From a virus (Duplodnaviria; Heunggongvirae; Uroviricota; Caudoviricetes), in the IMG/VR virus record IMGVR_UViG_2737471844_000004, positions 1 through 13,401 of that record: 13,401 nucleotides of DNA, one strand, 5' to 3'. A program made the translations under genes and the position numbers. Under the pieces are notes generated by a model. The model saw only the letters and a program-made list of their open reading frames with translations. It was not told where the DNA came from and did not search any database. Below, in pieces: positions 763 to 13,401 of this stretch. The number at the start of each line of letters is the position of its first letter. Within the stretch, counting starts at the first letter, position 1.

Positions 763-1244
763 GTCCGGTTTGGCTACCCGAGCAAATTTTATTAGAACAC
801 TATCAAGGTGAGTGGGAGGCCTACTTTGATAGTGTTTATCAAGCATTCCACCGCGATTTCGTTTTATCTAAACCAGTTTTTCGTGGCGTTCGATTAGGAT
901 TGAAACGTCATCCAGAATATGAAGGTAAATCAGCCACATTCTGGCATATGATTAGCACTGGAAATGTAGAAAGTGAGAGAGTGCCGGATATTCGGCGCTG
1001 CGAAAGAATTAGTTGGCCTAAGCCTGTTATAGATAATAGTACCGATACCTGTTTGAAAGTCTGGGCTGAGCCCAAAGGTAAAAATAGACGTATCCACATT
1101 TGGTTTGAGGATGAGGGATATCTGGTGGTTTTAGATGATAGAGGCGATTTTATGCTTCCATGGACAGCGTTTTATATTGAACATAACCATCAACGAAAGA
1201 AATACAATAAGAGATGGGAAAGACACAATCATAACGGTATTTGA
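753..1244 (+). CDS. Hypothetical protein, partner of the DUF3800-like gene; no family recognised
   Basis: 163-aa ORF overlapping the upstream stop. The ATG at 759 forms an ATGA overlap with the TGA at 760-762 and lies 5 nt after the SD-like GGGGGA (748-753), so 759 is the likelier start; the track start is 753. Distinctive motifs: FWHMISTG, RRCERISWPKPVI, LVVLDDRGDFMLPWTAFYIEHNHQRKKYNKRWE. AT-rich like its neighbour. Confidence 0.7.
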   Translation: MSMSPVWLPEQILLEHYQGEWEAYFDSVYQAFHRDFVLSKPVFRGVRLGLKRHPEYEGKSATFWHMISTGNVESERVPDIRRCERISWPKPVIDNSTDTCLKVWAEPKGKNRRIHIWFEDEGYLVVLDDRGDFMLPWTAFYIEHNHQRKKYNKRWERHNHNGI

Positions 1245-1253
1245 TAGTAGGCT

Positions 1254-1282
1254 GGCCGCGCCCTTCCTAGAAGGACGGGGCC
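1254..1282 (+). other. Imperfect GC-rich hairpin just after the two-gene operon (possible transcript-end or stability element)
   Basis: GGCCGCGCCCTTC-cta-GAAGGACGGGGCC: 11 paired positions, 2 mismatches, 3-nt loop, starting 10 nt after the TGA at 1242-1244. No T-run follows, so it is not a canonical intrinsic terminator. Confidence 0.3.
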
Positions 1283-1548
1283 GTAACTCCTTCTACACTT
1301 ACGCTAGAAGCTGGTAGATGAGATAGCCTAACTTTAAGTAAACCTGCCTTGCGAGTCAATTAACATTAGAAAGCGATTATGTAAATGTGGATGCTGACTT
1401 GGCGAAAAATCCTTATAAATCAATAGATAGTAGGTTTATTTTCAACTCATAGTTTTTGACTATTAATAGTATGTTATCTATCTAAAAAAAGTTTTCTGTA
1501 TTCATCGCAAAATCAATACTGCTTTAGCATTGTAGTTAGCCATCAGTT

Positions 1549-1574
1549 GCAAAAAGCCTTACCCGTAGGCTTAA
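1549..1574 (-). terminator. Weak intrinsic terminator closing the island's minus-strand transcription
   Basis: On the minus strand AAGCCT-acgggta-AGGCTT (6-bp stem; plus-strand arms 1554-1559 and 1567-1572) is followed by TTTTTG. It lies about 40 nt after the stop of the 59-aa ORF. The short stem makes it moderate at best. Confidence 0.4.
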
Positions 1575-1611
1575 CGTTTGGCTTGGCTGTAGTCTTACCG
1601 TAACGCTCCGC

Positions 1612-1791
1612 TCACCGTCGTGGCCTGTCCGGTTTCTTCCACTGATACGGCCTCACATCATCCTGCTGGTGGCGTTCCTGTTGCAGCACAACGGAAACAG
1701 GCGCTGAACACCTGTTAATTTTGCTTGCTGGTTGTTTGATTTCGGCAATGCTGCGGATCATCTCCAGCATATCGGCTTCGGTGATGGTCAT
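1612..1791 (-). CDS. Small hypothetical protein (59 aa), absent from the ORF track (below the 60-aa cutoff)
   Basis: Hand translation from the ATG at 1791: MTITEADMLEMIRSIAEIKQPASKINRCSAPVSVVLQQERHQQDDVRPYQWKKPDRPRR, stop TGA at 1614-1612. A strong SD, AAGGTG, lies 6 nt upstream of the ATG. Same strand as the island operons and followed by the hairpin at 1554-1572. Confidence 0.45.
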   Translation of the reverse strand: MTITEADMLEMIRSIAEIKQPASKINRCSAPVSVVLQQERHQQDDVRPYQWKKPDRPRR

Positions 1792-1798
1792 GATTTAC

Positions 1799-2082
1799 AC
1801 CTTAGGAAATCTTAGGGGGCTGGTTGACACTTTCCGGCTTAAGACCTTAACAAACCTTAACATCGCAGGTTGACACACTTGACACTTTTTCGCGAAAAAC
1901 CTTATCAAACCTTAGCATTTCTAAGCATGGCAACTTGACACTTTTCGCGATTTTTTTCGGCTTTTTGACGTGGTAAATCTGGCGCAAGGCCAGTAACGGC
2001 GGGGCTTACAGCGAGGTTGACACTTTTTCGCGTTCAGAGTGTAAAGTGTCAACCCGGCAAGCTGCTCAACTTGACACTTTTT
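1799..2082. repeat. Interleaved two-family repeat array; candidate packaging-specificity (cosB/pac-like) or other multi-site protein-binding region
   Basis: Family 1, TTGACAC(TTT): direct at 1824-1833, 1870-1877, 1879-1894, 1935-1949, 2017-2032, 2071-2082; inverted at 2043-2052 (AAAGTGTCAA). Three copies extend to TTGACACTTTT(T)CGCG. Family 2, ACCTTA(N), occurs in pairs phased 10 bp apart: 1799/1809 (second copy ATCTTAG), 1844/1854, 1899/1909. There is also a palindrome CTTAGcatttCTAAG at 1911-1925. The two families alternate along the 295-bp gap between the TerS-like gene and the 59-aa ORF. Confidence 0.85.
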
Positions 2083-2086
2083 GATG

Positions 2087-2614
2087 TCATTGATGGTCTG
2101 ATTTTTCCCATTCAGCTAGGGCGTTTAGCCCGGCTTCACTCCATGATTCCAGTTCATCGGCATAATCACCTGCAACATAGCAGAGTTCGCAACGCAGCAT
2201 ACTAATTGCCAGCCTGGCATTACCTCGCAAATTGTATTGTTCAAAGTAATGCTGCCCGTCGCAATCCTCAAGGCAGATAGCACCATCATCAAGAAATTGC
2301 ACTTCCCAGCCTAATTCCCCGGCTGCATCCAGCACACGCTGCTGTATGCCCTCGTCCGTTGCTGGCGCAGGAATTTTACCGTCTCTGGCCTTAACTGCTT
2401 TCCAGAACTCGCCCCACGTCATTTCCAGCGTTCTCTCTGGCCACATTTCAGAAACTGTGTCTTTTCCCTGTGCTGGTGGGCTGTTCCGCTGCTCTGTCGC
2501 TTCCACATCGATTTTTTTACCGGACATGACCACTTCGCCTTTCTCGATCCAGTCGTAAACTGTCTGGCGGCTTACGCCTTTGTGTTTGGCATATTCTGCC
2601 TTACTCATCAGCAT
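2087..2614 (-). CDS. Terminase-small-subunit-like HTH protein; candidate packaging-redirection (Rpp-like) factor
   Basis: 175-aa ORF. The N-terminus MSKAEYAKHKGVSRQTVYDWIEKGEV is a helix-turn-helix of the type at the N-terminus of lambda Nu1-like small terminases. No large terminase, portal or capsid gene follows. It is the last large gene of the operon and abuts the repeat array. An SD-like GGGTGAG precedes the ATG at 2614. Confidence 0.5.
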   Translation of the reverse strand: MLMSKAEYAKHKGVSRQTVYDWIEKGEVVMSGKKIDVEATEQRNSPPAQGKDTVSEMWPERTLEMTWGEFWKAVKARDGKIPAPATDEGIQQRVLDAAGELGWEVQFLDDGAICLEDCDGQHYFEQYNLRGNARLAISMLRCELCYVAGDYADELESWSEAGLNALAEWEKSDHQ

Positions 2615-2620
2615 TATGAC

Positions 2621-3292
2621 TCACCCTTCTTTTTCCAGTTGAGCCAGCCGCCCGGATATTTCTTCCAGTTTTTCCAGGGCTGGCTTGCAGGCCGCATCAA
2701 TAACGTCCCGGACCATTCCGGCAAGCTGTTCTTCTGCTGTCGGCGTTGTTACTTCCACGCCCGATGGTTTCCCGCCCTTATCCCAAACACCAAGCGGCAC
2801 GAGCGCAACGTGATCGATAAGAAATGGCGTACCCTCAATAAAAAAATTGTCCTCGCCCATTACATCAGGAACTTCTGCCCCACCTGAGGCACCACAAAAC
2901 ACAACCGACGGACTGGTGGATACCTCCCCTCGGGCTTTCTGGATGTAATCGATGATTTCCTGTCCGTAAATCCGGCATACGCCCCACACCTCGTCACCGC
3001 GAATATACGGCAACATGACGGTGCCAATAATGCGCGACCGTTCGCCCACGTCTTCAAGGGTTTTGCTTTCGGGATGGTCGATAATGACGGGTACTCCGGC
3101 GCAACGTTCCAGGAACTGCGGATTGAGATAAGTTTGCGGTGAACGCCAGACAAATTCTTTTTCTTCGGCGCGGTAGGCCATTCCGGTTCCTGTGATACGC
3201 AGGTTAACCAGCCACATGTTGGAAAACTGATAAGGCGACGGTAGCTGTCCGTCCCGAATCTGCTTCGCCGCCTCAATTTCTGTTAAAAGCAT
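2621..3292 (-). CDS. DUF2213/XkdF-like prohead protease or scaffold-like protein (morphogenesis-related candidate)
   Basis: 223-aa ORF. The pattern VPVIIDHP ... IIGTV ... GDEVWGVCRIY ... EVSTSPSVVF ... IDHVALVPLGVWDKGG resembles the DUF2213 layout as I recall it (H..., lS.GY, NH.ALV..GRAG). The C-terminus LEKLEEISGRLAQLEKEG looks coiled-coil. The family call is from recollection only. Confidence 0.45.
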   Translation of the reverse strand: MLLTEIEAAKQIRDGQLPSPYQFSNMWLVNLRITGTGMAYRAEEKEFVWRSPQTYLNPQFLERCAGVPVIIDHPESKTLEDVGERSRIIGTVMLPYIRGDEVWGVCRIYGQEIIDYIQKARGEVSTSPSVVFCGASGGAEVPDVMGEDNFFIEGTPFLIDHVALVPLGVWDKGGKPSGVEVTTPTAEEQLAGMVRDVIDAACKPALEKLEEISGRLAQLEKEG

Positions 3293-3316
3293 AATGTTAT
3301 CCGGTTATAAGCAATA

Positions 3317-3340
3317 AGCCCCGCCAAATCCGGCAGGGCT
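3317..3340 (-). promoter_or_regulatory. Intergenic hairpin between the 192-aa and 223-aa genes (possible attenuator or processing site)
   Basis: Plus strand AGCCCCGCC-aaatcc-GGCAGGGCT: 9-bp stem with one mismatch. On the minus strand it is followed by TTATTGCTTAT, only partly T-rich. Confidence 0.3.
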
Positions 3341-3356
3341 GAACTCAGCACGTTTT

Positions 3357-3935
3357 TCATGCCCCCGCGAGGCTTGCAACGTTAATTTTGACCAGGCGAC
3401 GGGGAGGGATTTTGAAGGCGTTCAGCCAGACGTTCGGATCTCCCTGATATTCAGTAATACGACGACCAGCTTCATCCATTCTTACGGTTTTACCCAAATG
3501 GCCCGGCGTGTTTTCCACGGCCCACTGAGCACTTTCCTGAGCAGCCTTGTAAATCTGATCTTCCAGCACCGCCAGCGTTGCAGAATCTGAAACGGAACGA
3601 ATATCCACATCACTGAATTTTTTAGCCAGCTTCTGTGCGCCAATTAATGCACGTTTGCGGTAATCCATCGACTTTTCACCAGCAAACGGGGCCGGAGCGC
3701 GACGGCCCATATTGCTGTATGCGGAATCCGCTTTAGCCTGGGCTTCTGCCAGTGAGGATTCATCTTCGACTGACGCGACGATGTTTTGATTAGCGTTATC
3801 CTCTTTTATGAAATCCTGTGCGGGGATCGCATTCAGAATTTCGATAATCTCCTGCGGAGTGCTTCCCTGCGACTCTGACAGAGCGTTAACCACCTCCATC
3901 AGTTTTAATCGCAAATCTTCTTTGCTTGCTGGCAT
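3357..3935 (-). CDS. Hypothetical protein (192 aa) of the morphogenesis/packaging operon
   Basis: The track ORF runs 3357-3944 from a GTG. The ATG at 3935 (MPASKEDLRLKLMEV...) has the SD GAGGTG 6-7 nt upstream and is preferred. The N-terminal half is acidic and helical-looking. No family recognised. Confidence 0.65.
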   Translation of the reverse strand: MPASKEDLRLKLMEVVNALSESQGSTPQEIIEILNAIPAQDFIKEDNANQNIVASVEDESSLAEAQAKADSAYSNMGRRAPAPFAGEKSMDYRKRALIGAQKLAKKFSDVDIRSVSDSATLAVLEDQIYKAAQESAQWAVENTPGHLGKTVRMDEAGRRITEYQGDPNVWLNAFKIPPRRLVKINVASLAGA

Positions 3936-3974
3936 TTTTACCACCTCTCTTTTTTCACCAAAAAATCACGACCA

Positions 3975-4148
3975 TCAGGCCGGACGTTCTACGGGATAAA
4001 GCGCCCGCTGCATTAAACGCCGGGCGACCTCATGAATGCTCGGAGCAATCCCCAGCGGAGAATTGCGGCGTTCCTCGTCCTGGATGCGCTGTAATGCTTC
4101 AATCTGATCACGAGCGAGTAAAACGGGTTTCACGCTGGCTTTTCTCAT
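3975..4148 (-). CDS. Small ribbon-helix-helix-like protein, first gene of the morphogenesis/packaging operon
   Basis: The track ORF is 3975-4172. The ATG at 4148 (MRKASVKPVLLARDQIEALQRIQDEE...SIHEVARRLMQRAL) lies 7 nt after AGGAGA; an alternative ATG is at 4154. The strand/helix/helix pattern suggests a CopG/Arc-type fold by eye. Confidence 0.5.
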   Translation of the reverse strand: MRKASVKPVLLARDQIEALQRIQDEERRNSPLGIAPSIHEVARRLMQRALYPVERPA

Positions 4149-4275
4149 AGTCATATCTCCTGAACAAAACAATGATTATGATTGCACAAACTGAAATGAC
4201 GATCTACATCATTGCAATTTATGAAACAATAACGCATGATGATCGCGTTCTTCCCATTGACTTCAATCACCTGCA

Positions 4276-4314
4276 AAAATAAAACCCGCAACACTTCTGG
4301 CTGCGGGTTTTTTA
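4276..4314. terminator. Bidirectional intrinsic terminator
   Basis: AAAAATAAA-ACCCGCA-acacttctggc-TGCGGGT-TTTTTT: 7-bp GC-rich stem (4284-4290 / 4302-4308), with an A-run upstream and a T-run downstream, so a U-tract follows on either strand. Confidence 0.7.
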
Positions 4315-4321
4315 CTGGCAC

Positions 4322-4345
4322 AAAAAAGCCGGGAAAAATCCCGGC
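4322..4345 (-). terminator. Intrinsic terminator right after the PerC-like gene
   Basis: Minus strand GCCGGGA-tttt-TCCCGGC followed by TTTTTT (plus-strand A-run 4322-4327). It begins 6 nt after the stop at 4351 and sits in tandem with the 4276-4314 terminator. Confidence 0.75.
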
Positions 4346-4350
4346 CTCCG

Positions 4351-4638
4351 TCACTGACTGCAATTTTTCGATCCAGGGTATTTCCTGAATGCCTTACCAT
4401 TGGGCTGATGTAATCCCATCCCGGCATGTGCCCGGCTGATGGTTTCGCGCATCTCCCCGAAATTATCCTGCCGTGCTGGTGGGCGTGCTGCCTTGCGGAT
4501 ACATTCCGCGCGACGTTTTGCCGCCTGTTCCCGTGCCTTGTCATCATTCGCCAGCATGATGACCTCAGCCCACCGCGCCGCCGCTCTCCGGTACAGACCA
4601 CGCGCTTCCAGTGCTTCCGCTTTGCTGTCGTGAATCAT
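4351..4638 (-). CDS. PerC-family-like transcriptional regulator
   Basis: 95-aa ORF. 'AEALEARGLYRRAAARWAEVI' matches the conserved LE..G.YRRAA.RW core I associate with PerC/Pch proteins. Its ATG (4638-4636) overlaps the upstream stop as ATGA. Confidence 0.6.
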   Translation of the reverse strand: MIHDSKAEALEARGLYRRAAARWAEVIMLANDDKAREQAAKRRAECIRKAARPPARQDNFGEMRETISRAHAGMGLHQPNGKAFRKYPGSKNCSQ

Positions 4639-5183
4639 GCGCCTGTTTTCTCCTTTGCTGCCCGGCGCTGACGTTTGCGCTTCTCATTCAGCGCCACCAG
4701 CCGCGTTTCTGCGTCCTGTTGTTCCTGTGGTGTCACCTCGCCGCACGGCTGGCCTTTCAGGTCGTAGCGTACCCCACCAGCCATTAAGGCGCGGTAATAG
4801 CGCGGACACTGCGCATAAGATGCCAGCGTCGCACGTAATGCCCCTGGCCCGAATGCCAGCCCCCTGACGGCGAGATCCTGCATCAGGTCGTCGAATATCC
4901 CCACCTTAAGCGGCTTCGGTGCTTCCCGGCTGAATAATTCAGGCCACAACTCAGTGAGGCGGTTAATGCGCCTGCGGTTTTTTCGCTGCCGTTTGGTCAT
5001 ATGCCGCCACGGTGTCGCCCCTGTGGGCTTCTGCTGCGCTTTCTGGTTACCGGGCATCACTTTATGCGCCGATGTGGTTTTATCCTGCTGCTGCTGCTGC
5101 TGCTGCTGCTGCGCCGCCTGCGTCGTTTTCTGCGGCGTGCCGTAAATGCCTTTCGGTTTTCTGTTAATAGTCAGCTTAGTCAT
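4635..5183 (-). CDS. ProQ/FinO-domain RNA-binding protein with an N-terminal poly-Q tract
   Basis: LTELWPELFSREAPKPLKVGIFDDLMQDL ... LRATLASYAQCPRYYRALMAGGVRYDLKGQPCGEV aligns by eye with E. coli ProQ ([22 protein letters not shown] ... [35 protein letters not shown]). The track ORF extends to 5231. The ATG at 5183 (MTKLTINRK) has GGGG 6 nt upstream and is preferred. Confidence 0.75.
   Translation of the reverse strand: MTKLTINRKPKGIYGTPQKTTQAAQQQQQQQQQDKTTSAHKVMPGNQKAQQKPTGATPWRHMTKRQRKNRRRINRLTELWPELFSREAPKPLKVGIFDDLMQDLAVRGLAFGPGALRATLASYAQCPRYYRALMAGGVRYDLKGQPCGEVTPQEQQDAETRLVALNEKRKRQRRAAKEKTGA
5085..5111. repeat. Perfect trinucleotide repeat (CTG)9 on the plus strand = (CAG)9 encoding Q9
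   Basis: Nine uninterrupted CTG units counted directly. In frame, giving QQQQQQQQQ in the ProQ/FinO-like protein. Confidence 0.95.
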
Positions 5184-5236
5184 GCTTTGCCCCATCGTTT
5201 TTACTGATTGTTTCATATCCGGTACTTTCATCTTCT

Positions 5237-5522
5237 GGGTAGAGGGGTAGACGGCGGGTAGATAACAAAAAATAGTCCTCTACCCACTTAACTTAATGAA
5301 AAAAAACAACTTTCACACATTAGGTAGAGGGGTAGACCGTAAAATAGAAAAGTTTGAAACTTACTTTCTTACAATCTGTGTTTTCCTCTCGCTGTATAAA
5401 AAGTTTTTTGAGCGGGGATGTTGTCTACCCCTCTACCCACTTCTCTGAAAGCCTTGTGCTACGAGGGATTCAGCGGGTAGACAATAAAAAATCACCATCT
5501 ACCCTGTGTCTACCCATCTACC
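5237..5522. repeat. Iteron-type replication origin (candidate ori) just downstream of the primase/helicase gene
   Basis: Core GGGTAGA(C): direct at 5237, 5245, 5256, 5323 (GGTAGA), 5330, 5475; inverted (G)TCTACCC at 5279, 5423, 5431, 5498, 5508, 5517. The 16-mer GGGTAGAGGGGTAGAC (5237-5252) has an exact reverse complement at 5423-5438, and its 15-mer recurs at 5323-5337. AT-rich blocks at 5286-5320 and 5338-5410 lie between the iteron clusters. Confidence 0.75.
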
Positions 5523-5539
5523 TGTTACGGGTATTACTC

Positions 5540-7288
5540 TTATAAAAATTCCTCGGTTCTCTCCGTTTGTATAACGTTGGTTTGTATTCGTCCTTTAAAA
5601 CCTCTTGTCAGGTATTCAGCCCCATATTCTCTTGCTGCTGACTTCATGGCCTTACCAAAATCACCGACACTTAATATTTCTTCTTCCCCCATATACTCCA
5701 TAAAGGCGAGATATAGTCTGTACAGGCTTGTACGCGGATTAAGATCAGTTAATCTCTTACCGCCTCCCATCATCATCCCATGCGGTTCATCAAGAAATGC
5801 AAGCGCCGCACATAACCCAATGACAGGATCAGTTTCCTGTTTTATTTTCAGAGCTTCGGCACCGTCGCGCTGCTCCAACAATAATTCCCGTGCTTTTTCT
5901 GGATCGGAAAAGTTAGCCAGTAATCGACGAATAATGACAGGTATTTCCGCCGCTATCTTTTGCGGTAACTCTTTATCCTTTTCGGTCTCCCTTACAATAT
6001 TATCGAACCGAAAAATTACACGTCGACGCGCAACGCCTCCGGCCCGTTCGGTGAATGTCATCGGCACGTTATTTGTTGCCAGCACGACGGACCTGATAAT
6101 TGTTGTGAAACGCTTTTCATATTTCGGGTTAATTTCAACTGGATCTCCACCCGTTATTTTTTTGATGCCGGATCCTTCACCTGTATATTTCGGCTGGTCT
6201 GCCAGGACAATAAGACGACTTCCGACAACCTGCGCACGCCCGCCAGCATCATCAAGCGATGTCATTTCAGCGCTTACCGTGTTCTGTTTCCCTGCCAGAA
6301 GGGTGGCTATGTGCGTGATTGTGCTCTTGCCGCTCCCGCCTTCCCCTGTGGCCTCAATAAACATCTGCCAGTCGTACCGGTTCGCCATAATCATGTACAG
6401 CGCGGCGCATATACGCATCATCTTTCGCGGGTCTTTTCCTGCGGCGTGATCAAGCCATTTATGAAAGTTTGGCGCGTTGTCGCGGATGTTCTCCCCTGGT
6501 ACTGGTGGCGTGTACTCAATGCCGTTATGCGTGGTGATCCAGTTATCCGGCGAGTGCGGGGAAAATTCGCCAGTTTTCATGTCAAGCACGCCATTAGAGA
6601 ACGGCAATAAATCACCTGACGGTTCCCCCATTGGCCTGGCCATAACTTTTAAAGCATCCACAGCATTACTTATTGCTCTCCGACTAAACGATGTTCCGTT
6701 TTCTTCGTAAATAGCCACCATTTCACGACTAAGATCCAGTGTGCTTACCGGAACCCAAAAATCATCGCGCCAGACGTGGACAACCTCACTCTCCTGATTC
6801 ATTGCTACATCCTGAAATCGTTCAGCTAAAAGTTTTGCCCTTTGGCTGTCCGCCATTCTGGAAAGAGATATTTTGTGTTTTTTCTCGGTCCTTCCTGACA
6901 GAATTTCTCCGCGCTCAGCCTGTTCGCGGATCCGTTGCAGGTAGTCGCGCCAGTTCTCCGGTTCCTGGTCGGTGATGCCTTTGTATAATTTCGCCTCCTG
7001 TACGCCAGCCAGCGCCAGCTTTTCAGCGATAGTATTGATCTGGATTGGCTCTATCTCCCCCGCGATATAGACACGCGCAAAACGGCGTTTCTCGTCAATA
7101 ATGCGGATATTCGCCAGGTCTGCCAGTTGCTTTGGCCCCAGGTAAACAGGAGGCACGTTATCGCCGTGTTTTCGTCCTTCACTTTCAATCCAGTGTTGAG
7201 CATGGGCGTAAGCATCCGTCCCGGCAAAAATGATTACCTCAGTGAATTTATCCTTCGGCTGATATTTTAGACTCGGTGCGTTTTTCAC
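5540..7288 (-). CDS. P4-family phage/plasmid primase-helicase (D5-type NTPase), replication initiator
   Basis: 582-aa ORF. Walker A GEGGSGKS is encoded at 6346-6323; a Walker-B-like LIVLADQP lies downstream. The overall pattern resembles the C-terminal domain of P4 alpha / D5-family primases. GTG start at 7288 with the SD GGAGG 6 nt upstream, overlapping the upstream stop as GTGA. An iteron ori follows. Confidence 0.85.
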   Translation of the reverse strand: MKNAPSLKYQPKDKFTEVIIFAGTDAYAHAQHWIESEGRKHGDNVPPVYLGPKQLADLANIRIIDEKRRFARVYIAGEIEPIQINTIAEKLALAGVQEAKLYKGITDQEPENWRDYLQRIREQAERGEILSGRTEKKHKISLSRMADSQRAKLLAERFQDVAMNQESEVVHVWRDDFWVPVSTLDLSREMVAIYEENGTSFSRRAISNAVDALKVMARPMGEPSGDLLPFSNGVLDMKTGEFSPHSPDNWITTHNGIEYTPPVPGENIRDNAPNFHKWLDHAAGKDPRKMMRICAALYMIMANRYDWQMFIEATGEGGSGKSTITHIATLLAGKQNTVSAEMTSLDDAGGRAQVVGSRLIVLADQPKYTGEGSGIKKITGGDPVEINPKYEKRFTTIIRSVVLATNNVPMTFTERAGGVARRRVIFRFDNIVRETEKDKELPQKIAAEIPVIIRRLLANFSDPEKARELLLEQRDGAEALKIKQETDPVIGLCAALAFLDEPHGMMMGGGKRLTDLNPRTSLYRLYLAFMEYMGEEEILSVGDFGKAMKSAAREYGAEYLTRGFKGRIQTNVIQTERTEEFL

Positions 7289-7575
7289 TTCTTACCTCCC
7301 GCAACCAACATTGCCCGGATTTTTTTTATATTCGTGGCTGCACGTCTCGCCACTGCCTGTTGTTTGTTTTCCACCAGAATAAAATCACGATCAAACTGAC
7401 GGCGCGGCATTACGCAGTCATATTCGTAAGCCTCACGGCGGTAGGTGATATTGCCTGGCGTAACGTGACGAATAACCACCCGTCCCCCGCGTCTGGTGTC
7501 CCGGAAAATATCACCGGGGCGGATTTCAGGCCGAGAGAGGCCGCTGGCAGTAAAGCCAGAATTTTTCTTTTTCAT
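7285..7575 (-). CDS. Small basic protein, possibly DUF4222-like
   Basis: 96-aa ORF. 'IRPGDIFRDTRRGGRVVIRHVTPGNITYRREAYEYDCVMPRRQFDRDFILV' resembles the DUF4222 pattern I recall from genes just upstream of primases in P4-like prophages. Confidence 0.45.
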   Translation of the reverse strand: MKKKNSGFTASGLSRPEIRPGDIFRDTRRGGRVVIRHVTPGNITYRREAYEYDCVMPRRQFDRDFILVENKQQAVARRAATNIKKIRAMLVAGGKK

Positions 7576-7579
7576 GGTT

Positions 7580-7780
7580 TTATTTTCCTGTCAGCAGTTC
7601 CGGTTTTATTTCCGCACGAATACAAAGTTCAGAAAAAAATTCAGGAGAACCAACAATCTCATTACTTTTCAGTCGGCATTGTGATTTCACTTTCCCTTTA
7701 TCCAGGTAAACCAGTACGCGTCCGGTGAAATCATCTGGCACATTAAGCACTACGGGTACATGCACTTCATGATTATGCAT
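7580..7780 (-). CDS. Hypothetical protein with one copy of a ~45-aa 'D-FTG' repeat domain
   Basis: 66-aa ORF. Its ATG overlaps the upstream stop as ATGCATAA. The domain FTGRVLVYLDKGKVKSQCRLKSNEIVGSPEFFSELC aligns with both repeats of the 7999-8364 product. Confidence 0.6.
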   Translation of the reverse strand: MHNHEVHVPVVLNVPDDFTGRVLVYLDKGKVKSQCRLKSNEIVGSPEFFSELCIRAEIKPELLTGK

Positions 7781-8006
7781 GGCTTACATCCTCCGTGAAT
7801 TTTCTTCTGTAACGCGCCTCTGCCACATATTCCGCATAGTCCGACGCAATACTAAGAATCATTTCACCCTCTGACTTGTAGCCACTGGTATTGATAAGAA
7901 AATATGCAGCTTTCATCATGTCAGCAACGCTCAACAATGCGCCCGATGTATCTTCCGGTGCGCCATCAAATTCCCGTTTCAGGGAATTAAAACGATCATC
8001 ACGCAT
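7773..8006 (-). CDS. Hypothetical small acidic protein
   Basis: 77-aa ORF, overlapping both neighbours by 8 nt. No family recognised. Confidence 0.55.
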   Translation of the reverse strand: MRDDRFNSLKREFDGAPEDTSGALLSVADMMKAAYFLINTSGYKSEGEMILSIASDYAEYVAEARYRRKFTEDVSHA

Positions 8007-8364
8007 GTTTACCCCCCTGAATGACCTGATAACCGCAACTGGTCAGCAACTCGATAAATTCCGGCAGTGTGCCGAAACAGCAATCATCACGCAGCCGTTC
8101 GCAGGATACCTCGACGCCGTTTTCGTAGTGACTCACCATACGTCCGGTAAAATGCAGATCATCATCGTGATGGCTCGTTGACGGCTTAATCAGTCGCGCA
8201 CGTTCCGCCAGTTCCAGCAATGCTTCAACGCTTCCGGCAATTGCACCATCCGGCAGGTGGTAATTACGCACTATGCGCCCGTTCTCCACATGGACCAGTA
8301 GCTGCCCGGTAAATTTCTCGTCAAACTGAATGCTGTTAAGGTCAGAAATTGACAGGTTATGCAT
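7999..8364 (-). CDS. Hypothetical protein with two tandem 'D-FTG' repeat domains
   Basis: The track ORF extends to 8382. The ATG at 8364 (MHNLSISD...) overlaps the upstream stop as ATGCATAA and is preferred. Repeats: FTGQLLVHVENGRIVRNYHLPDGAIAGSVEALLEL and FTGRMVSHYENGVEVSCERLRDDCCFGTLPEFIELL. Confidence 0.65.
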   Translation of the reverse strand: MHNLSISDLNSIQFDEKFTGQLLVHVENGRIVRNYHLPDGAIAGSVEALLELAERARLIKPSTSHHDDDLHFTGRMVSHYENGVEVSCERLRDDCCFGTLPEFIELLTSCGYQVIQGGKHA

Positions 8365-8581
8365 GGTGCACCTCCTGCACATCAGCCATGATAATTTTTC
8401 CGGCCTTATCCAGTGCCTGATCGGCTTTTAGCTGCACAAATGCTAAATAATGGGAGATGCATTCTGATTCTCTGGCTGCGTGTTTATGCGCCACACCAGC
8501 GATAGCAGAAATCTCAATAAGTGAATCCATCAGCGTTTTGATAGCGTCTACCGCTGCATCAGGCCATGTTGCATTACACAT
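8357..8581 (-). CDS. Hypothetical small protein
   Basis: 74-aa ORF. Its ATG at 8581 overlaps the upstream stop as ATGTGTAA. No family recognised. Confidence 0.55.
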   Translation of the reverse strand: MCNATWPDAAVDAIKTLMDSLIEISAIAGVAHKHAARESECISHYLAFVQLKADQALDKAGKIIMADVQEVHHA

Positions 8582-8939
8582 GTTCCACCTCCTGGCGAAT
8601 ACGGGCGGCGAATACCATCACGCAGCCATCAGGAGATTGCTGACGTGCTTCCTGTTCGCTGGTGGCCTCGATGTGAATTACGCGCGGTTGTGCCGTGCTC
8701 AGGGCGATAAAACGCCAGATAAAATTGTTCTCGCATTTCTGAATAAACAGCGTGTTTTCTTCGCGCCCTTTCCATGTTGCCGAGATATAGCCCATGTCAT
8801 TGAGCATCTCGCAGGCATCAACCAGCGTATCAGCAGCTACGTGTACAGTGTTTTTACCGTCAGCTATGCAATCACGGTGCACCGCCAGGAAGGTGTATAT
8901 AAATTTAGGGTGAGTTTGGGTATGCTGTGTTCCAGCCAT
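8574..8939 (-). CDS. First gene of the replication operon; possibly Icd-like (host cell division inhibitor-like)
   Basis: This is the 3' part of the 510-aa track ORF. An internal ATG at 8939 (MAGTQHTQTHPKFIYTFLAV..., 121 aa) has the SD GAGG 8 nt upstream and lies about 90 nt downstream of a good sigma70 promoter. 'HPKFIYTFLAV' resembles N-termini of proteins annotated Icd-like in P4-like prophages; this is weak recollection. Confidence 0.5.
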   Translation of the reverse strand: MAGTQHTQTHPKFIYTFLAVHRDCIADGKNTVHVAADTLVDACEMLNDMGYISATWKGREENTLFIQKCENNFIWRFIALSTAQPRVIHIEATSEQEARQQSPDGCVMVFAARIRQEVEHV

Positions 8940-8969
8940 AATCGTTACCTCATTTAACGGTTTGGTTAG

Positions 8970-9003
8970 ACGCCCCGCTACTGCCGCAAACAGTTCGGGG
9001 CGT
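8970..9003 (-). promoter_or_regulatory. Leader hairpin in the 5' UTR of the replication operon
   Basis: ACGCCCCG (8970-8977) and CGGGGCGT (8996-9003) form an 8-bp GC-rich stem with an 18-nt loop, between the predicted TSS (~9030) and the ATG at 8939. No U-tract on either strand. Confidence 0.35.
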
Positions 9004-9028
9004 TGTCGTTTACATCCTCTTACTGAGG

Positions 9029-9104
9029 TGTGATTTAAATTAAATTTAACTGAATCACAGGTCAAGTATTTTTTGTGATTCTTTTTTGTGTATACTGAAT
9101 CACA
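9029..9104. promoter_or_regulatory. Twin palindromic operators in the divergent switch region
   Basis: O1 is TGTGATT-N17-AATCACA (9029-9059). O2 is TGTGATTC-N15-GAATCACA (9074-9104). Both span 31 bp and are offset by exactly 45 bp; CTGAATCACA is repeated at 9050 and 9095. O1 covers the minus-strand promoter. O2 covers the putative plus-strand -10 TATACT (9091-9096). Confidence 0.6.
9037..9065 (-). promoter_or_regulatory. Sigma70-type promoter for the minus-strand replication operon
   Basis: On the minus strand: -35 TTGACC (9065-9060), a 17-nt spacer, then -10 TAATTT (9042-9037). It overlaps operator O1. Confidence 0.5.
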
Positions 9105-9126
9105 TCTTTTGTTTAGGAGAATGCAC

Positions 9127-9432
9127 ATGGCAAAAAACACTATCAACGACAAATCAAAACAGATTTCAATTCGTATCCCACATGATGCTTTTGAAGGCAT
9201 GGAATCCGTAAAACTGGACGGTGAAAGCAACGCCGGATTCATAGTAACCGCCATGCGCGGTGAGATCGCCCGCCGCCAGGCAGAAGGAAGCGGAGAAAAT
9301 CCCCTGGTTTCTTCGCTCGATGCGCTGGCGCAGGTGGAAAAAATCGGAGTCAAAGCTGCCGAGGAGATCGGGCAGCTCGTCACCGTCGCACGTGAAGAAC
9401 TCCAGCGCCGCAAGGCCAAAGAATCAGAATAA
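9127..9432 (+). CDS. Small DNA-binding regulator (ribbon-helix-helix-like N-terminus, coiled-coil C-terminus); candidate switch repressor
   Basis: The track ORF starts at 9088. The ATG at 9127 (MAKNTINDKSKQISIRIPHDAFEGMESVKLD...) lies 6 nt after AGGAGA (9115-9120). 'QISIRIPHDAFEGM' looks like an RHH beta-strand plus helix. It is divergent from the replication operon, with the operators in between. Confidence 0.65.
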   Translation: MAKNTINDKSKQISIRIPHDAFEGMESVKLDGESNAGFIVTAMRGEIARRQAEGSGENPLVSSLDALAQVEKIGVKAAEEIGQLVTVAREELQRRKAKESE

Positions 9433-9489
9433 TAACTATCATCGCCGTGGTGTGAGGAACTCCGGCGCATTGCTTTACAGGTACACAGA

Positions 9490-9684
9490 ATGACCAACAA
9501 AGAATCAACCAATACACCATCACCGGCACGGAAAAGACGGCGCAGAAAGATAGAGCACGAATCAGAAAGATTCGCGCCATGTGCTTTTGCCCTTGAGCAA
9601 TTCCTTAAAGAGTACAGGCGCACAAAAATGGGATCGCATACCTGGAAAACATCGCGGCATGGCAATGTTAAAGAGCATGAATAG
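9490..9684 (+). CDS. Possible small basic protein (very uncertain)
   Basis: 64-aa ORF downstream of the RHH-like gene (MTNKESTNTPSPARKRRRRKIEHE...). There is no convincing SD, and it lies antisense to the long minus-strand frame. Confidence 0.2.
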   Translation: MTNKESTNTPSPARKRRRRKIEHESERFAPCAFALEQFLKEYRRTKMGSHTWKTSRHGNVKEHE

Positions 9685-10106
9685 CCCACCAGCAAGCCAG
9701 CACACTGATCACATTGCCCACCAGCCGCAAATCTGGCATTGTTGGCAATGTGTTCAAGTGTGTAGCTTTCCCACTGGTGGCCCTCTGCAGTCGCCTTTGT
9801 TTTATCCAGAACGAAATCAGACATCAGATTGATCAGCACCTGGTGACCTGACAAAATCGCATCAGTCACGCCACCAGCAAAATTTTTTGCTTTCCGGACA
9901 GCGTGGCCAACGGCATTTTGCAGCGAAATATTCTGCATTTCTGGCGTGCTGTAGTAACGGTGATCAGTGCCTTCACTCTGTGCGACCACAACGCTATAAT
10001 CTGCCTCGTAGACAGTAAGCAATATGGCGCAGTAGGCTATTCGTTCACAAAGGCGCTCCGGCAACGGGGCGCTTTCTCTTTTTGTAACGGTCAGAGCGTT
10101 ACACAT
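9685..10106 (-). CDS. Coding-looking 5' segment coupled to the antirepressor gene; 3' end unresolved (no stop until 8574)
   Basis: The ATG at 10106 overlaps the upstream stop as ATGTGTAA. The first ~135 residues (MCNALTVTKRESAPLPERL...YTLEHIANNARFAAGG) have protein-like composition, after which the frame turns Ser/Cys/Arg-rich. The lower coordinate is a judgement, not a stop codon. Confidence 0.3.
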
Positions 10107-10899
10107 GGCTGTTTTCCTCCATGCGACGGGCTAACCAACGCTGCGAAAGGCGAATTAATTCAGCTTTCCGCTGGTGGTAGTCCTGGCCTAACTCAATCAG
10201 CGTGATATTGCTCTGCTCAAGGTAAGAAAGGTGCTCAAGCTGCAACACGCTCATGTGGTCGCGTGGTTCACCTGTAATGCCGTTCGCCTGCGCCCACTGT
10301 TTTGCAGTCATGCCACCCAGCACGATACGCGCCAGCATGTTCGCTTCCGTGGTGTAGTGGTGCTGGAGTGTGTTTTTACCCAGTTCAGCCCGGTACGCCT
10401 CCAGCGCGGCACACATTGGCTTAAAGTAGCTGGCAACTGTGATACGGGCTTTCAGTTCCCGGCGTAACGCTGCGGAACGTACAGGCGCAACCTTGTGTAG
10501 CTCCTCCTCGCATTTGATAAAGTACTGACGAACGGCGCGCCCCTGTTCGGTGCGCTCGACCATCGCCAGTTCTTTCGCCATGTTGATAGTGCTCAGGTAG
10601 TCGTGCTCTACACGTTGGCGAGATTTTGCGCTCACCGGATTGGGGGAGGTCAAATTTTCTACGAATTCAAAATCCACGCCCTTTTTAAATCCGTACTCAT
10701 CAATGCGTCCTTTAATCCAAGTTGTGAAATCACGCTTCACACCCAGCGCCTTATGCAACGCTCTGGCGCTAACAATATTGGTTTCACGCCCGCCAATAAC
10801 GCCGGAAATAACCGGGATAATTTCGCCGAAATTTTGTTGGCTCTGGTTTTCAGGCCGAACGAAGCCCTGCCCCTGTACGGGCGTTTTTCGCAGTTTCAT
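10099..10899 (-). CDS. Phage antirepressor-type protein (AntA/Rha-like N-terminal domain)
   Basis: 266-aa ORF. 'IVSARALHKALGVKRDFTTWIKGRIDEYGFKKGVDFEF ... DYLSTINMAKELAMVERTEQGRAVRQYFIKCEEEL' matches the AntA/AntB antirepressor pattern as I recall it (ARdLh..Lgv..dFs.Wik.rI..y.f..g.Df ... dy.l.l.mAKel.Mve....G...R.YFI..E). The SD AGGAG lies 5 nt upstream. Confidence 0.75.
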   Translation of the reverse strand: MKLRKTPVQGQGFVRPENQSQQNFGEIIPVISGVIGGRETNIVSARALHKALGVKRDFTTWIKGRIDEYGFKKGVDFEFVENLTSPNPVSAKSRQRVEHDYLSTINMAKELAMVERTEQGRAVRQYFIKCEEELHKVAPVRSAALRRELKARITVASYFKPMCAALEAYRAELGKNTLQHHYTTEANMLARIVLGGMTAKQWAQANGITGEPRDHMSVLQLEHLSYLEQSNITLIELGQDYHQRKAELIRLSQRWLARRMEENSHV

Positions 10900-10977
10900 A
10901 AAAACTCCTGCTATCGAATTAAGTTACTTTTTATTTGCTGGTGGATAGCTGGGGCTTCTGGCCCCGTAGCTGTTTTA

Positions 10978-11196
10978 TCAGGCTGATGTGTTTCGGCGTT
11001 CTTCCAGCCAGCGATTAACCTCTACCGCATCGAATGCAGTGCTTTTCTCACCCAGTTTGATGGGCTTAGGCATCTTCCCGCTACGCACCCAACGATCGAG
11101 CGTTGATAAGCTGGTACCCAGCAATTCAGCCAGGCGATAGCGGCGGATATAGCCAGTTGCAGGGATTGCGGTTTGAAGTATTGGTTGGTTTTTCAT
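10978..11196 (-). CDS. alpA: AlpA-family transcriptional regulator/excisionase-like HTH protein
   Basis: 'YIRRYRLAELLGTSLSTLDRWVRSGKMPKPIKLGEKSTAFDAVEVNRWLEERR' fits the AlpA (Phage_AlpA) pattern. The track ORF extends to 11289, but that upstream part looks non-coding. Likely starts are the ATG at 11196 or 11205. Confidence 0.8.
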   Translation of the reverse strand: MKNQPILQTAIPATGYIRRYRLAELLGTSLSTLDRWVRSGKMPKPIKLGEKSTAFDAVEVNRWLEERRNTSA

Positions 11197-11308
11197 ATGC
11201 CCCATTACCTTTGTTGTTGGTTTGTGATTCGTAATAGGGGCATTAAATAACAAATGAAATGATGTGTGTGTGAGTTTTAGAAAAAACACTGTGACTTTTC
11301 TTATTTCA

Positions 11309-12091
11309 CTATCTAAAACGCTCTCGCCAGCTTTTCCAAGTGTTCTTATCTGGTTGTGGGATTACAATGCCTTTTTGAGCACCTATTTGTGCAATTTTTT
11401 TATTTAACTTGTTAGGCGGCAAAGATATTATCTCATTGTCTGTTAATCCGGCAATTCTTAATAATCCATATATCATTTTAAATTGATGTATTGTTAATCT
11501 TGGTAACTTGTGATTTTCTTTTTTTATAGTGTTGTTTATGGAGTAAATTGGAAATCCATTTGTTATTGATTTATAAAGGTTGTCAATGTGCTCTCTGGTT
11601 ATTAATAATGAATCAGGTGTAATCTTAATGTTGCCGCTTGTTTTTGCATGGCATGAAAAAATAAATGTGGGATTCGCAGTGCGACGTGAAAGCGGTATGG
11701 ATGTATTCATAGAGATAGTTTTGTTTCTTACTATAGTCTCTTGAATATCAAAAACTCCAGAAACCTTTGCCTCAAAAATAACACCATTTTCTTTTATTTC
11801 ATCACTATATTCATGAATAATTATGCCAAGAGAGGAAATTTCTTTTTTGATGAGAAAAGAAATAAAATCAATATAGTCTTCATCCTTTGGCCATGTAAAA
11901 TCACGATAACCAAAATACCCCTCACAGTAAGCATTTTTTATTTTTGTGGCAAAATTAATTCTGTTAATATCCTGCCAATGCCATAAATCATCTATCTCAC
12001 ATTCTAAAATTTGAGCTGCTCTATCTAAAGAGCAGAATTCTAATGGAGGTAATTGTTTTTTTTGCCATATTGTTTCATTAATATTTGTCAT
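11309..12091 (-). CDS. AT-rich orphan protein (260 aa) between int and alpA; function unknown
   Basis: Complete ORF, about 33% G+C in a hand-counted 60-nt sample versus about 50% or more in the island core. No family recognised. The N-terminal 'LEFCSLDRAAQILECEIDDLWHWQ' and C-terminal 'LTDNEIISLPPNKLNKKIAQIGAQKG' look loosely HTH-like. Confidence 0.7.
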   Translation of the reverse strand: MTNINETIWQKKQLPPLEFCSLDRAAQILECEIDDLWHWQDINRINFATKIKNAYCEGYFGYRDFTWPKDEDYIDFISFLIKKEISSLGIIIHEYSDEIKENGVIFEAKVSGVFDIQETIVRNKTISMNTSIPLSRRTANPTFIFSCHAKTSGNIKITPDSLLITREHIDNLYKSITNGFPIYSINNTIKKENHKLPRLTIHQFKMIYGLLRIAGLTDNEIISLPPNKLNKKIAQIGAQKGIVIPQPDKNTWKSWRERFR

Positions 12092-12147
12092 GATTGCACT
12101 ACCGTTATGAAAAAATATATTCGTTAATGAATTAGCCTTAATGTCTA

Positions 12148-13401
12148 TTATTTATTAGATTGCGTGATGTCAGAACATATCATGTTTTCTAAATTCACCA
12201 GCAAATCAGTCCACTGTGCCAGCGCCGCTTTGCGCTCATCAAAATATTGATGGCGGTTATAAATGCCCTCTACGCCTTTTATGCGGTGGTTAAGGCATCG
12301 TTCAGCAACGATCGGGTCAACTCCCAATGCTGCTAAATGTGTTCGTGCTGTTCGCCGGAAGTCGTGAATTGTAAAGTTGGGGACGTTCGGCATTTCTGCT
12401 CTGACTTTTGCCAATGCAACAGGAAGGGTGCTTTCCTGGATGTGAGGGATCATTCTGTGCTGCATTTTTCTGGCAGGTAATACCCATGCGCTATTGCATG
12501 AAAATGTGTGCAATTCTCGCAACCATTCTATGGTCGCTGGTGGTAATGGTATGTCGATAGCATCGCCATTTTTAGTTCGTTGTTCTGGTAGATGCCAAAT
12601 CGCGCCATCTAAGTCGAATTCATCCCACCTGGCGGCGCATAACTCCATTTTTCTGACACACAATGCTAAGAGCAACTTAAAGGTTAATTCGTTCTGGCGG
12701 CTGAATCCTTTGGCTTTACGCATGGCCTGAAAAAATTGGATTAATTCGTCACGGTTCAGCCAGCGATCACGAGATAATTCTTTCCCACCAGCATCTGATA
12801 CTTCAAAAGCTGAGCAGGGGTTAACCTCCAAAGCAAGGCGTTTAATACCGTAGTCAAATATTCGACGTGTCCACCGAAGAACGTCAGTAGCAATTGTTGG
12901 AGCGCCTCTATCAACAATGCTTTTAAGCATGGCATCAATATGGCGTGGTTTTACATCTTCAACCTTCATGTGGCCTATGGCAGGATTTATGTCTTTATCA
13001 ATGCGCCTGCGGAGAATATCTGGGTGTTTCCATCGGGGAAGTATTTGCCGTGCAAAGTATTCGGCGGCAAGTTCAGAAACATGCAGCGCGTTTTTTTCAG
13101 CTTCTATTTTTGCCAGTGCTTCGGCTTTACGCTGCTGTTTTTCTGCGGCTACGTCATATCCCAAAGCAACTCGTGCGGAAAGTTCTTTTGCCAGTTCCCT
13201 GGCTTTTGATAACGATAATTCAGAATATGAACCAATAAGCATGGCACGAGATTTTCCTGCCAGTTTATATCGAAACCGCCATGTCGGGGATCTATCCACC
13301 TCTCTATACCGGAGATATAGCCCACCACCATCAGCACGACCTTCGAAATGTTCTCCGGCTTTTATCCATGCGCGGATCTGCATATCTGTGAGTTTTGGCA
13401 T
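12148..13401 (-). CDS. int: P4-type tyrosine integrase (DUF4102-like N-terminal domain)
   Basis: 417-aa ORF starting at the window edge. The N-terminus 'LTDMQIRAWIKAGEHFEGRADGGGLYLRYR...WRFRYKLAGK' is typical of P4-family integrases. Catalytic-type motifs are present: CVRKMEL (Arg), HDFRRTARTH (His-x-x-Arg), LNH, GIYNRHQY (Tyr). Confidence 0.9.
   Translation of the reverse strand: MPKLTDMQIRAWIKAGEHFEGRADGGGLYLRYREVDRSPTWRFRYKLAGKSRAMLIGSYSELSLSKARELAKELSARVALGYDVAAEKQQRKAEALAKIEAEKNALHVSELAAEYFARQILPRWKHPDILRRRIDKDINPAIGHMKVEDVKPRHIDAMLKSIVDRGAPTIATDVLRWTRRIFDYGIKRLALEVNPCSAFEVSDAGGKELSRDRWLNRDELIQFFQAMRKAKGFSRQNELTFKLLLALCVRKMELCAARWDEFDLDGAIWHLPEQRTKNGDAIDIPLPPATIEWLRELHTFSCNSAWVLPARKMQHRMIPHIQESTLPVALAKVRAEMPNVPNFTIHDFRRTARTHLAALGVDPIVAERCLNHRIKGVEGIYNRHQYFDERKAALAQWTDLLVNLENMICSDITQSNK

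Follow-up and report, generated by a model that had tools for sequence, protein, structure and literature searches.

A candidate ribbon-helix-helix repressor switch and a predicted antisense RNA at the replication operon of a PICI-like satellite island

What holds the replication genes of a Gram-negative phage-inducible chromosomal island (PICI) in check? These elements have been described as unidirectionally transcribed, with AlpA as activator and a global repressor that is "unclear" (PMC6092414), and the master activator in those relatives that have been characterised is AlpA (PMC6092414, PMC11773190). We analysed a window of 13.4 kb, i.e., positions 1 to 13,401 of the IMG/VR virus record IMGVR_UViG_2737471844_000004, which, judged by its genes, is a PICI-like phage satellite island. 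Its replication operon is preceded by a divergent switch, in which a plus-strand gene for a ribbon-helix-helix (RHH) protein of the YlcI/YnfO family faces away from the operon and two palindromic operators (O1 and O2) lie between them. We consider it likely that this protein, bound to the four half-sites of the two operators, represses both promoters and that an antisense RNA forms a second layer of control.

Operators and divergent promoters

We searched the window for the palindrome TGTGATT-N17-AATCACA, allowing at most two mismatches, and found O1 and O2 as the sole matches (Table 2). The expected count of such palindromes is 0.07, and two were reached in one of 200 shuffles. Both operators are 31 bp long with AT-rich spacers of 17 bp, and they lie 45 bp apart from start to start; the 11-mer ACTGAATCACA is repeated at exactly this offset. 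Four of the seven TGTGATT heptamers of the window are found inside 76 bp, and the centres of the four half-sites (HS1 to HS4) are 24, 21 and 24 bp apart. An earlier reading of the bare sequence (the original prediction) had claimed two 31-bp palindromic operators at this distance. They were borne out in coordinates and arms, and form the only such pair in the window. Single TGTGATT heptamers without a palindromic partner also occur upstream of alpA (11223-11229 and 11509-11515). They are probably not operators, their count being within chance expectation (2.4 per window).

The operators are interleaved with two back-to-back promoters. P(-) precedes the operon that runs from the icd-like gene to the primase gene. 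HS2 abuts its -35 hexamer, and its -10 hexamer lies in the O1 spacer beside HS1. P(+) precedes the RHH gene, and its TATACT -10 hexamer, found under O2 just as originally predicted, abuts HS4. Judged from the hexamers, transcription would start near position ~9030 for P(-), within HS1, and near ~9103 for P(+), within HS4. O1 thus brackets the spacer, the -10 and the inferred start of P(-), and O2 the -10 and the inferred start of P(+). Each operator encloses the core of one promoter, a geometry that suits steric repression. The operators keep their 45-bp offset in the related loci, and this distance follows from the back-to-back arrangement of the promoters.

Co-variation of the arms with the recognition strand

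We compared 22 distinct related loci (from a genome-wide locus search, which returned 12, together with exact-protein look-ups and E. coli records). They span about ten genera, including Escherichia (E. coli), Klebsiella, Enterobacter, Serratia, Edwardsiella, Erwinia, Xenorhabdus and Photorhabdus. The loci were anchored on the invariant -35 hexamer (plus-strand GTCAAG), which precedes the start codon of the RHH gene by 64-69 nt. The P(-) pattern TTGAC(N)-N17-TAAnnT is kept in nearly all of them, and a consensus scan finds this promoter at the homologous site in loci L002 (10/12) and L004 (9/12). The -10 of P(+) is likewise conserved as TATAMT, with a constant distance (28-31 bp) to the divergent -35, in the loci of classes 1-3 and 5-6 of the classification given below and in two of the four loci of class 4.

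Four half-sites were found at the same positions in every locus, with a sequence that varies between loci. The arm sequence shifts in concert with residues 11-17 of the RHH protein, i.e., its predicted recognition strand, which defines six specificity classes (Table 1). Within a locus all four sites change together, while R16 and P18 of the protein stay constant. Arm identity within a class is 88-100%, versus 59-81% for the O1 spacer. In class 4 the half-sites occupy the usual positions, but each side of the -35 has two direct repeats directed inwards, and the switch is one large palindrome instead of two. This arrangement recalls the freedom of orientation of the heptads bound by omega of pSM19035.

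Table 1. Predicted recognition strands of the RHH protein and the operator arms that accompany them.
Strand	Arms	Remarks
KS(K/R)QISIRIP	TGTGATT/AATCACA	E. coli, Klebsiella, Edwardsiella; proteins just 63-73% identical
QL(T/F)TVRVP	TGTGTTTC/GAAACACA	Xenorhabdus, Photorhabdus, E. coli, Serratia, Enterobacter
QSLTARIP	TGTAAG/CTTACA	
QQLNARFP	GGTATTCA/TGAATACC	
QMTTLRVP	GTGAGATATAC	
Q(L/V/M)KN(I/V)R(I/F)P	GTGTGTATTTA	Class 4: L003, L005, L017, L032

Two loci separate the RHH protein from its neighbours. L034 encodes an Icd-like protein identical to that of the window (WP_000929266.1) and a near-identical C-terminal half of the RHH protein, yet it has a QQLNARF strand and GGTATTCA arms. This combination implies that the unit exchanged by recombination consists of the operators and the N-terminal RHH domain. 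L032 shares its AlpA-like protein with a window-type locus (WP_000072422.1) and differs from it in the arms. The arms thus follow the strand of the RHH protein, and neither AlpA nor the Icd-like protein, which points to the RHH protein as the arm binder. Such data strongly suggest that it binds the arms and represses both promoters. The original prediction had made this protein an autoregulated repressor that holds replication off; the co-variation in six classes and the operators bracketing both promoters support this role, by comparison of sequences.

The leader of the two Edwardsiella loci (L028 and L029) has an extra CTGAATCACA half-site directly after the terminator described below, upstream of O1. 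It could give this lineage a fifth binding site.

The RHH protein

The protein is named "YlcI/YnfO family protein" in RefSeq and matches the NCBIfam profile YlcI_YnfO_N over residues 9-50 (65 bits). To our knowledge this family has no assigned function. We modelled the structure with AlphaFold2 from 25 homologues, with a mean predicted local distance difference test (pLDDT) score of 79 overall and 83-89 over residues 11-50. The model has an extended N-terminus, with the recognition strand at residues ~11-17 (KQISIRI), helices at 19-28 and 35-54, and a long C-terminal helix at 59-100. A predicted N-terminal beta-strand followed by two helices is the order of elements of an RHH domain. The turn between the helices (residues 32-34) reads GES, GET or DES, in keeping with the G-x-S/T/N turn of the fold, and R16, P18 and E33 are invariant among the homologues. 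A below-threshold match to the Pfam RHH family PSK_trans_fac was found for 17 of the 25. The 101-residue protein models as an RHH fold. In this superfamily (MetJ/Arc/CopG) the paired strands of a dimer enter the major groove and set specificity; the co-variation of residues 11-17 with the arms lends this indirect support here.

The conserved C-terminal half (9286-9429, residues ~54-101) contains a helix-hairpin-helix (HhH)-like motif, LDALAQVEKIGVKAAEEI, in the stretch that AlphaFold2 draws as one long helix. A profile search of solved structures gave only a weak match of HhH type, of this half to Hef (E = 0.0076). The HhH-like half may have a part in oligomerisation, in non-specific contacts with DNA or in the binding of an inducer. 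Homologues of the protein are widespread in islands of Enterobacterales, and a tblastn search of 50,697 phage records with it returned no match.

A predicted antisense RNA

A GC-rich hairpin with a perfect 8-bp stem (8970-8977/8996-9003) lies in the minus-strand leader of the operon, where the original prediction had placed it, but it folds much better as RNA of the plus strand. Across the related loci, the plus strand gives the more stable hairpin in 20 of 21 (summed energies of -509 versus -369 kcal/mol), because the frequent G.U pairs become A.C mismatches on the minus strand. A U-rich tail follows the hairpin on the plus strand only, and at the homologous site of L002 the scan reports a terminator on this strand. 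In an alignment of 20 sequences the terminator helix is 96% paired, with seven doubly changed pairs and many G.U cells.

The hairpin is accompanied by a second one. The same pair of hairpins forms in all 20 loci, and the first stem contains the complement of the start codon of the icd-like gene; in window-type leaders the loop also holds the anti-Shine-Dalgarno sequence CCUC. The covariation of the two helices is 0.36, versus 0.164 +/- 0.014 in shuffled alignments (0 of 500 reach the observed value) and 0.07-0.14 in slid controls. The RNA of the window (8932-9012) has a folding z-score of -4.1. All 20 loci also have a TAnnnT hexamer 5-12 nt upstream of the complement of the start codon, often TGn-extended (TGgTATGAT, TGaTATGAT), despite three unrelated N-termini of the first gene. 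From the plus-strand fold, the tail, the covariation and the upstream hexamer, we infer a conserved cis-antisense small RNA of ~80 nt and two hairpins, with the GC hairpin as terminator, that covers almost the whole 5' untranslated region, the Shine-Dalgarno sequence and the AUG of the icd-like gene. The island has a gene of the ProQ/FinO family, which by analogy suggests a partnership of the FinP/FinO kind; its product is a candidate chaperone for the predicted RNA.

Between the terminator and HS1 there is an inverted repeat, CCTC-N5-GAGG (9016-9028), with a counterpart in Xenorhabdus loci (CCTTGA-N4-TCAAGG, L004 2864-2889). It would form a stem-loop at the extreme 5' end of the icd-like mRNA, and it could be an mRNA stabiliser or a further binding site.

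Proposed mechanism

Each of the four half-sites would be recognised by one RHH dimer. The half-site pairs within O1 and within O2 would probably be bridged by the C-terminal helical domain, giving a NikR-like dimer of dimers on each operator. With the operators occupied, the replication operon would be silenced and the repressor gene would be under its own control. The operators and the N-terminal RHH domain are swapped together from one island to another, as a cassette of the immunity type. The antisense RNA, constitutive and ~80 nt long, would pair with the leader, the Shine-Dalgarno sequence and the AUG of the icd-like mRNA and block its translation, which would probably cause polarity on the downstream replication genes, as with C4 RNA in P1 immI.

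Alternative explanations

The arms of the window contain TGTGA and TCACA, the half-sites of CRP, and a global regulator of the host might bind them, with the RHH gene as an unrelated neighbour. CRP half-sites are separated by N6, whereas the arms here are arranged as TGTGA-N21-TCACA. The arms become TGTAAG, GGTATTCA or GTGAGATATAC at constant positions in other loci, which requires a locus-specific binder. Spacing and arm variability together rule out a CRP site, and we regard a host factor in general as extremely improbable. Nearly as little credence goes to binding of the arms by AlpA or the Icd-like protein, with another role for the RHH protein, e.g., partition or centromere binding as in ParG or omega. 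AlpA is a known master regulator of Gram-negative PICIs (PMC6092414), and the C-terminus of the Icd-like protein matches PHROGs labelled "transcriptional repressor", but the identical accessions of both proteins occur with two arm sequences (window-type versus L034 for the Icd-like protein and L032 for the AlpA-like protein), and the genes of the window include no ParA-type partner. The RHH protein could also be the antitoxin of a type II toxin-antitoxin system that autoregulates its own operon only, with an incidental overlap of O1 and the replication promoter. Many of its best structural matches are RHH antitoxins, a small open reading frame (ORF) of 64 aa follows the gene, and such autoregulation typically uses palindromic operators that overlie the system's promoter. 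This ORF is absent from many loci with the full switch (L014, L017, L023, L025) and matches no toxin family. This, together with an O1 that is conserved as well as O2 and brackets the divergent promoter throughout, makes an antitoxin very unlikely.

Other alternatives accept the binder and change its effect. The RHH protein might act mainly as an activator, e.g., of its weak own promoter in the way that Mnt activates Pmnt, or as an architectural factor that loops O1 to O2. The lack of a -35 in P(+) and the weak -10 of P(-) would suit an activator, and the spacing of 24, 21 and 24 bp could support higher-order complexes. In both promoters, however, the -10 lies between the arms and the inferred start is covered by one of them, the classic arrangement of steric repression, and we find activation or looping as the main role unlikely. 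It is somewhat less improbable, though still doubtful, that the GC hairpin works within the leader of the minus-strand mRNA, stabilising it or acting as an attenuator (like P4 CI or P1 C4), and that there is no antisense RNA. The window hairpin folds on the minus strand too (-21 kcal/mol) and its candidate antisense promoter is weak; on the other side stand the better plus-strand fold in all loci but one (by up to 14 kcal/mol), the U-rich tail on that strand only, and the lack of a match to the Rfam models of C4 and related RNAs.

Several observations weigh against repression of both promoters by the RHH protein with an antisense RNA as second layer. No Pfam RHH model passes its threshold for the window protein (the best, PSK_trans_fac, scores 16.6 bits versus 28.3), and Foldseek with the full model gave no match. 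A consensus promoter scan of window positions 8700-9400 called no promoter. The -10 of P(-), TAATTT, agrees with the consensus at only three of six positions and is weak, so that the "good" of the original prediction overstated it; the hexamers and their conservation in the related loci nevertheless bear out the minus-strand promoter under O1. P(+) has no recognisable -35, only a T-run. With two such promoters, an activator such as AlpA could be no less important than the repressor. The operators lie less than 100 bp from the codons of the recognition strand. The association of arms and strands therefore stems in part from their inheritance on one DNA block, and it is not phylogenetically independent evidence. 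The concerted change of four sites and the conservation of arms above spacers argue for more than linkage, being harder to explain by it alone. Relatives such as the PICI EcCIMP1 function without this RHH gene: the EcCIMP1 locus in E. coli MP1 (L031), at the same tRNA-Thr site as the window-type island, has no RHH cassette, and an ash-family pseudogene directly precedes the icd-like gene. The cassette is therefore an optional module in this PICI lineage. As for the RNA, the antisense promoter of the window is weak (TATGCT), and the antisense -10 overlaps conserved codons (Q/N-H-T), so that coding constraint could mimic promoter conservation. Rfam, searched with all its families, gave no match at gathering thresholds in the whole window and nothing credible at permissive E-values in 8800-9300 (the best weak match was Plasmid_R1162 on the minus strand, with 19 bits versus 55); the leader is thus not a known RNA of the C4, CI or IsrK type.

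Comparison with known systems

The closest parallel is immI of phage P22. There too a small RHH repressor (Mnt, Arc) is divergent from a silenced operon, with operators over back-to-back promoters (Pant/Pmnt). Mnt has a C-terminal oligomerisation domain, and the antisense RNA sar covers a ribosome-binding site in the same region, as predicted here. The P22 operators are compact (17-21 bp), in contrast to the two split palindromes of 31 bp, and the P22 operon encodes an antirepressor, whereas here the icd-like and replication genes are controlled. The two systems have no detectable sequence similarity. In P1 immI (c4 RNA - icd - ant) the first gene, of icd type, has its ribosome-binding site masked by an RNA, which in this way controls the downstream operon via polarity. 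The RNA predicted here is cis-antisense; C4, in contrast, is co-transcribed in sense orientation, and its action on nearby targets is in trans. The shape of the predicted RNA, two hairpins and ~80 nt, is shared by FinP of the FinP/FinO system of F.

The distance of about two helical turns between the arms had been flagged as notable for an RHH protein. This did not hold up, for NikR, a tetramer with two RHH dimers, binds the split operator GTATGA-N16-TCATAC (PMC7055735). The C-terminal domain of NikR is a metal-binding ACT-like tetramer, unlike the long helix with an HhH-like motif found here, and the biological roles differ. TraM was considered as a precedent for the 24-bp spacing and rejected, as the motifs read by one of its tetramers are 12 bp apart (PMC3159463). 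The heptads of omega are contiguous, whereas the arms here are 24 bp apart. The position of the switch is that of the genes for the master repressors Stl of SaPIs and Rpr of Gram-positive PICIs, which lie between the integrase side and the replication module, divergent from the replication operon and with intergenic operators (PMC6092414). Here too the RHH gene is divergent from the replication operon and the operators are intergenic. Stl and Rpr are helix-turn-helix proteins without similarity to the RHH protein, and the host element here is of the Gram-negative AlpA type. By analogy, the switch functions like the Mnt/Arc region of P22 immI, in the position of Stl and Rpr and with a NikR-like operator geometry.

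We searched the literature for YlcI/YnfO, RHH or Icd-like proteins in PICI regulation and found no relevant paper. The candidate RHH repressor switch lies in a type of element described as unidirectional and without a known repressor. It provides the abundant Gram-negative PICIs of Enterobacterales with a concrete candidate repressor, defined operators and six predicted specificity types, i.e., with handles on satellite silencing, helper sensing and the mutual immunity of co-resident islands. The natural pairs of strand and operator are a ready data set on RHH recognition.

A stop-free frame across the switch

The frame of the icd-like gene is open for 397 codons upstream of its own ATG, and the first in-frame ATG lies 389 codons up. 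The whole ORF (8574-10106, minus strand, 510 aa) begins at an ATG that overlaps the antA stop, and its upstream part (the bridge frame) passes antisense to the 64-aa ORF and the RHH gene and through both operators and the leader. The AT-rich intergenic region is stop-free in this frame in 15 of 22 loci, whereas each other frame has two to nine stops (five to nine except in one locus). Dinucleotide shuffles put the chance of a stop-free bridge frame at 1-3% per locus. Between the window and L032 the large indels are of 45 and 6 nt, small indels in the diverged intergenic stretch compensate each other, and both total lengths are multiples of three. The substitutions between these two loci show no third-position excess in the bridge frame. 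We rejected the bridge ORF as a real protein family, as it has no Pfam or PHROG match and lacks this bias. With stops absent and indels in frame, it follows that the frame is held open, without conservation of the amino-acid sequence. It is a speculation that read-through from the AlpA/AntA side must stay translated to escape Rho, and so enters the icd-like gene past both locks.

A larger scheme would be a hitherto undescribed three-layer gate in many Gram-negative PICI-like satellites, made of the swappable RHH cassette (N-terminal domain and four half-sites), which silences the replication operon, an antisense RNA that masks the ribosome-binding site of the icd-like gene, and the non-conserved bridge frame. 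In the third layer, AlpA- or helper-driven read-through would be translated across the reversed cassette into the icd-like gene, escaping Rho polarity and bypassing both locks. We hold this scheme only tentatively and judge it improbable as a whole. If it were true, these elements would have their missing "global repressor" in the RHH protein. If real, the antisense RNA and the bridge frame would add RNA-level and translation-level control to satellite biology.

The island and its genes

The genes are ordered as integrase, AlpA, AntA, switch, icd-like, small ORFs, DUF4222 and D5 primase-helicase (Table 2), i.e., the layout of Gram-negative PICIs, with an integrase at the end, AlpA adjoining it and a primase/replication module downstream. 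The minus-strand genes after the switch form one tightly packed operon that ends in a D5-type primase-helicase, which agrees with the replication operon originally predicted. Unidirectional transcription, the other trait of these elements, is not found: the RHH gene and the 64-aa ORF, the only plus-strand genes around the switch, are on the opposite strand, and the promoters are back-to-back. The genes for the ProQ/FinO-family and PerC-family proteins lie downstream of the primase gene, as does a DUF2213 gene.

Table 2. Features of the switch and of the surrounding island, in window coordinates.
Feature	Position	Strand	Details
PerC-family gene	4351-4638	-	4-nt overlap with ProQ/FinO-family gene
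ProQ/FinO-family gene	4635-5231	-	
D5_N/DUF5906 primase-helicase	5540-7288	-	
Rest of operon	5540-8581	-	Five small ORFs; stops and starts overlap
DUF4222 gene	7285-7575	-	
Icd-like protein	8574-8939	-	121 aa; first gene of operon; NCBIfam phage_ICD_like; RefSeq annotation of the 99.9% identical locus
Candidate antisense promoter	8898-8926	+	Weak -35 TATAAA 8898-8903, N17, -10 TATGCT 8921-8926
Predicted cis-antisense RNA	8933-9012	+	~80 nt; two hairpins
SL1	8934-8967	+	Stem holds anti-AUG; loop holds anti-Shine-Dalgarno CCUC
Bridge frame	8940-10106	-	In frame with icd-like gene; stop-free
SL2	8969-9004	+	GC-rich predicted terminator; U-rich tail 9005-9012
O1	9029-9059		TGTGATTTAAATTAAATTTAACTGAATCACA; spacer contains -10 of P(-)
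HS1	9029-9035		TGTGATT
HS2	9053-9059		AATCACA
P(-)	9037-9065	-	-35 TTGACC 9065-9060, N17, -10 TAATTT 9042-9037
O2	9074-9104		TGTGATTCTTTTTTGTGTATACTGAATCACA; spacer contains -10 of P(+)
HS3	9074-9081		TGTGATTC
HS4	9097-9104		GAATCACA
P(+)	9091-9096 (-10)	+	TATACT; T-run 9067-9073; Shine-Dalgarno AGGAG 9116-9120
RHH protein, YlcI/YnfO family	9127-9432	+	101 aa
64-aa ORF	9490-9684	+	
AntA/AntB antirepressor-family gene	10099-10899	-	
AlpA-family regulator	10978-11175	-	PF05930, 35.3 bits (cut-off 21); upstream of operon, same orientation
Tyrosine integrase	12148-13401	-	Integrase domains; at island end

A 99.9% identical island is found in E. coli JNU, at an attachment site (the tRNA-Thr adjoining proA) that it shares with EcCIMP1, a PICI whose mobilisation has been shown by experiment (PMC11773190). 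EcCIMP1 and EcCICFT073 match the window in the int-alpA-(antA)-icd-like-primase layout, the PerC gene and size. Induction, packaging and transfer by a helper phage have been shown for EcCIMP1 only, and its PerC homologue represses the enterocyte effacement locus (LEE) in Citrobacter (PMC11773190). Parts of the region 8500-9700 are present in 1717 of 5426 complete E. coli genomes, and the operator-bearing intergenic sequence itself is common to only ~43 E. coli genomes.

At the other end of the window (1-1244, plus strand), a DUF3800 protein (253 aa) and a 163-aa protein match A and B of PDC-M04 (E = 8e-98 and 9e-74), a candidate defence system of PADLOC. The island of E. coli JNU has an orc1/cdc6-family gene at that end in place of the PDC-M04 genes, and this end looks like a cargo hotspot.

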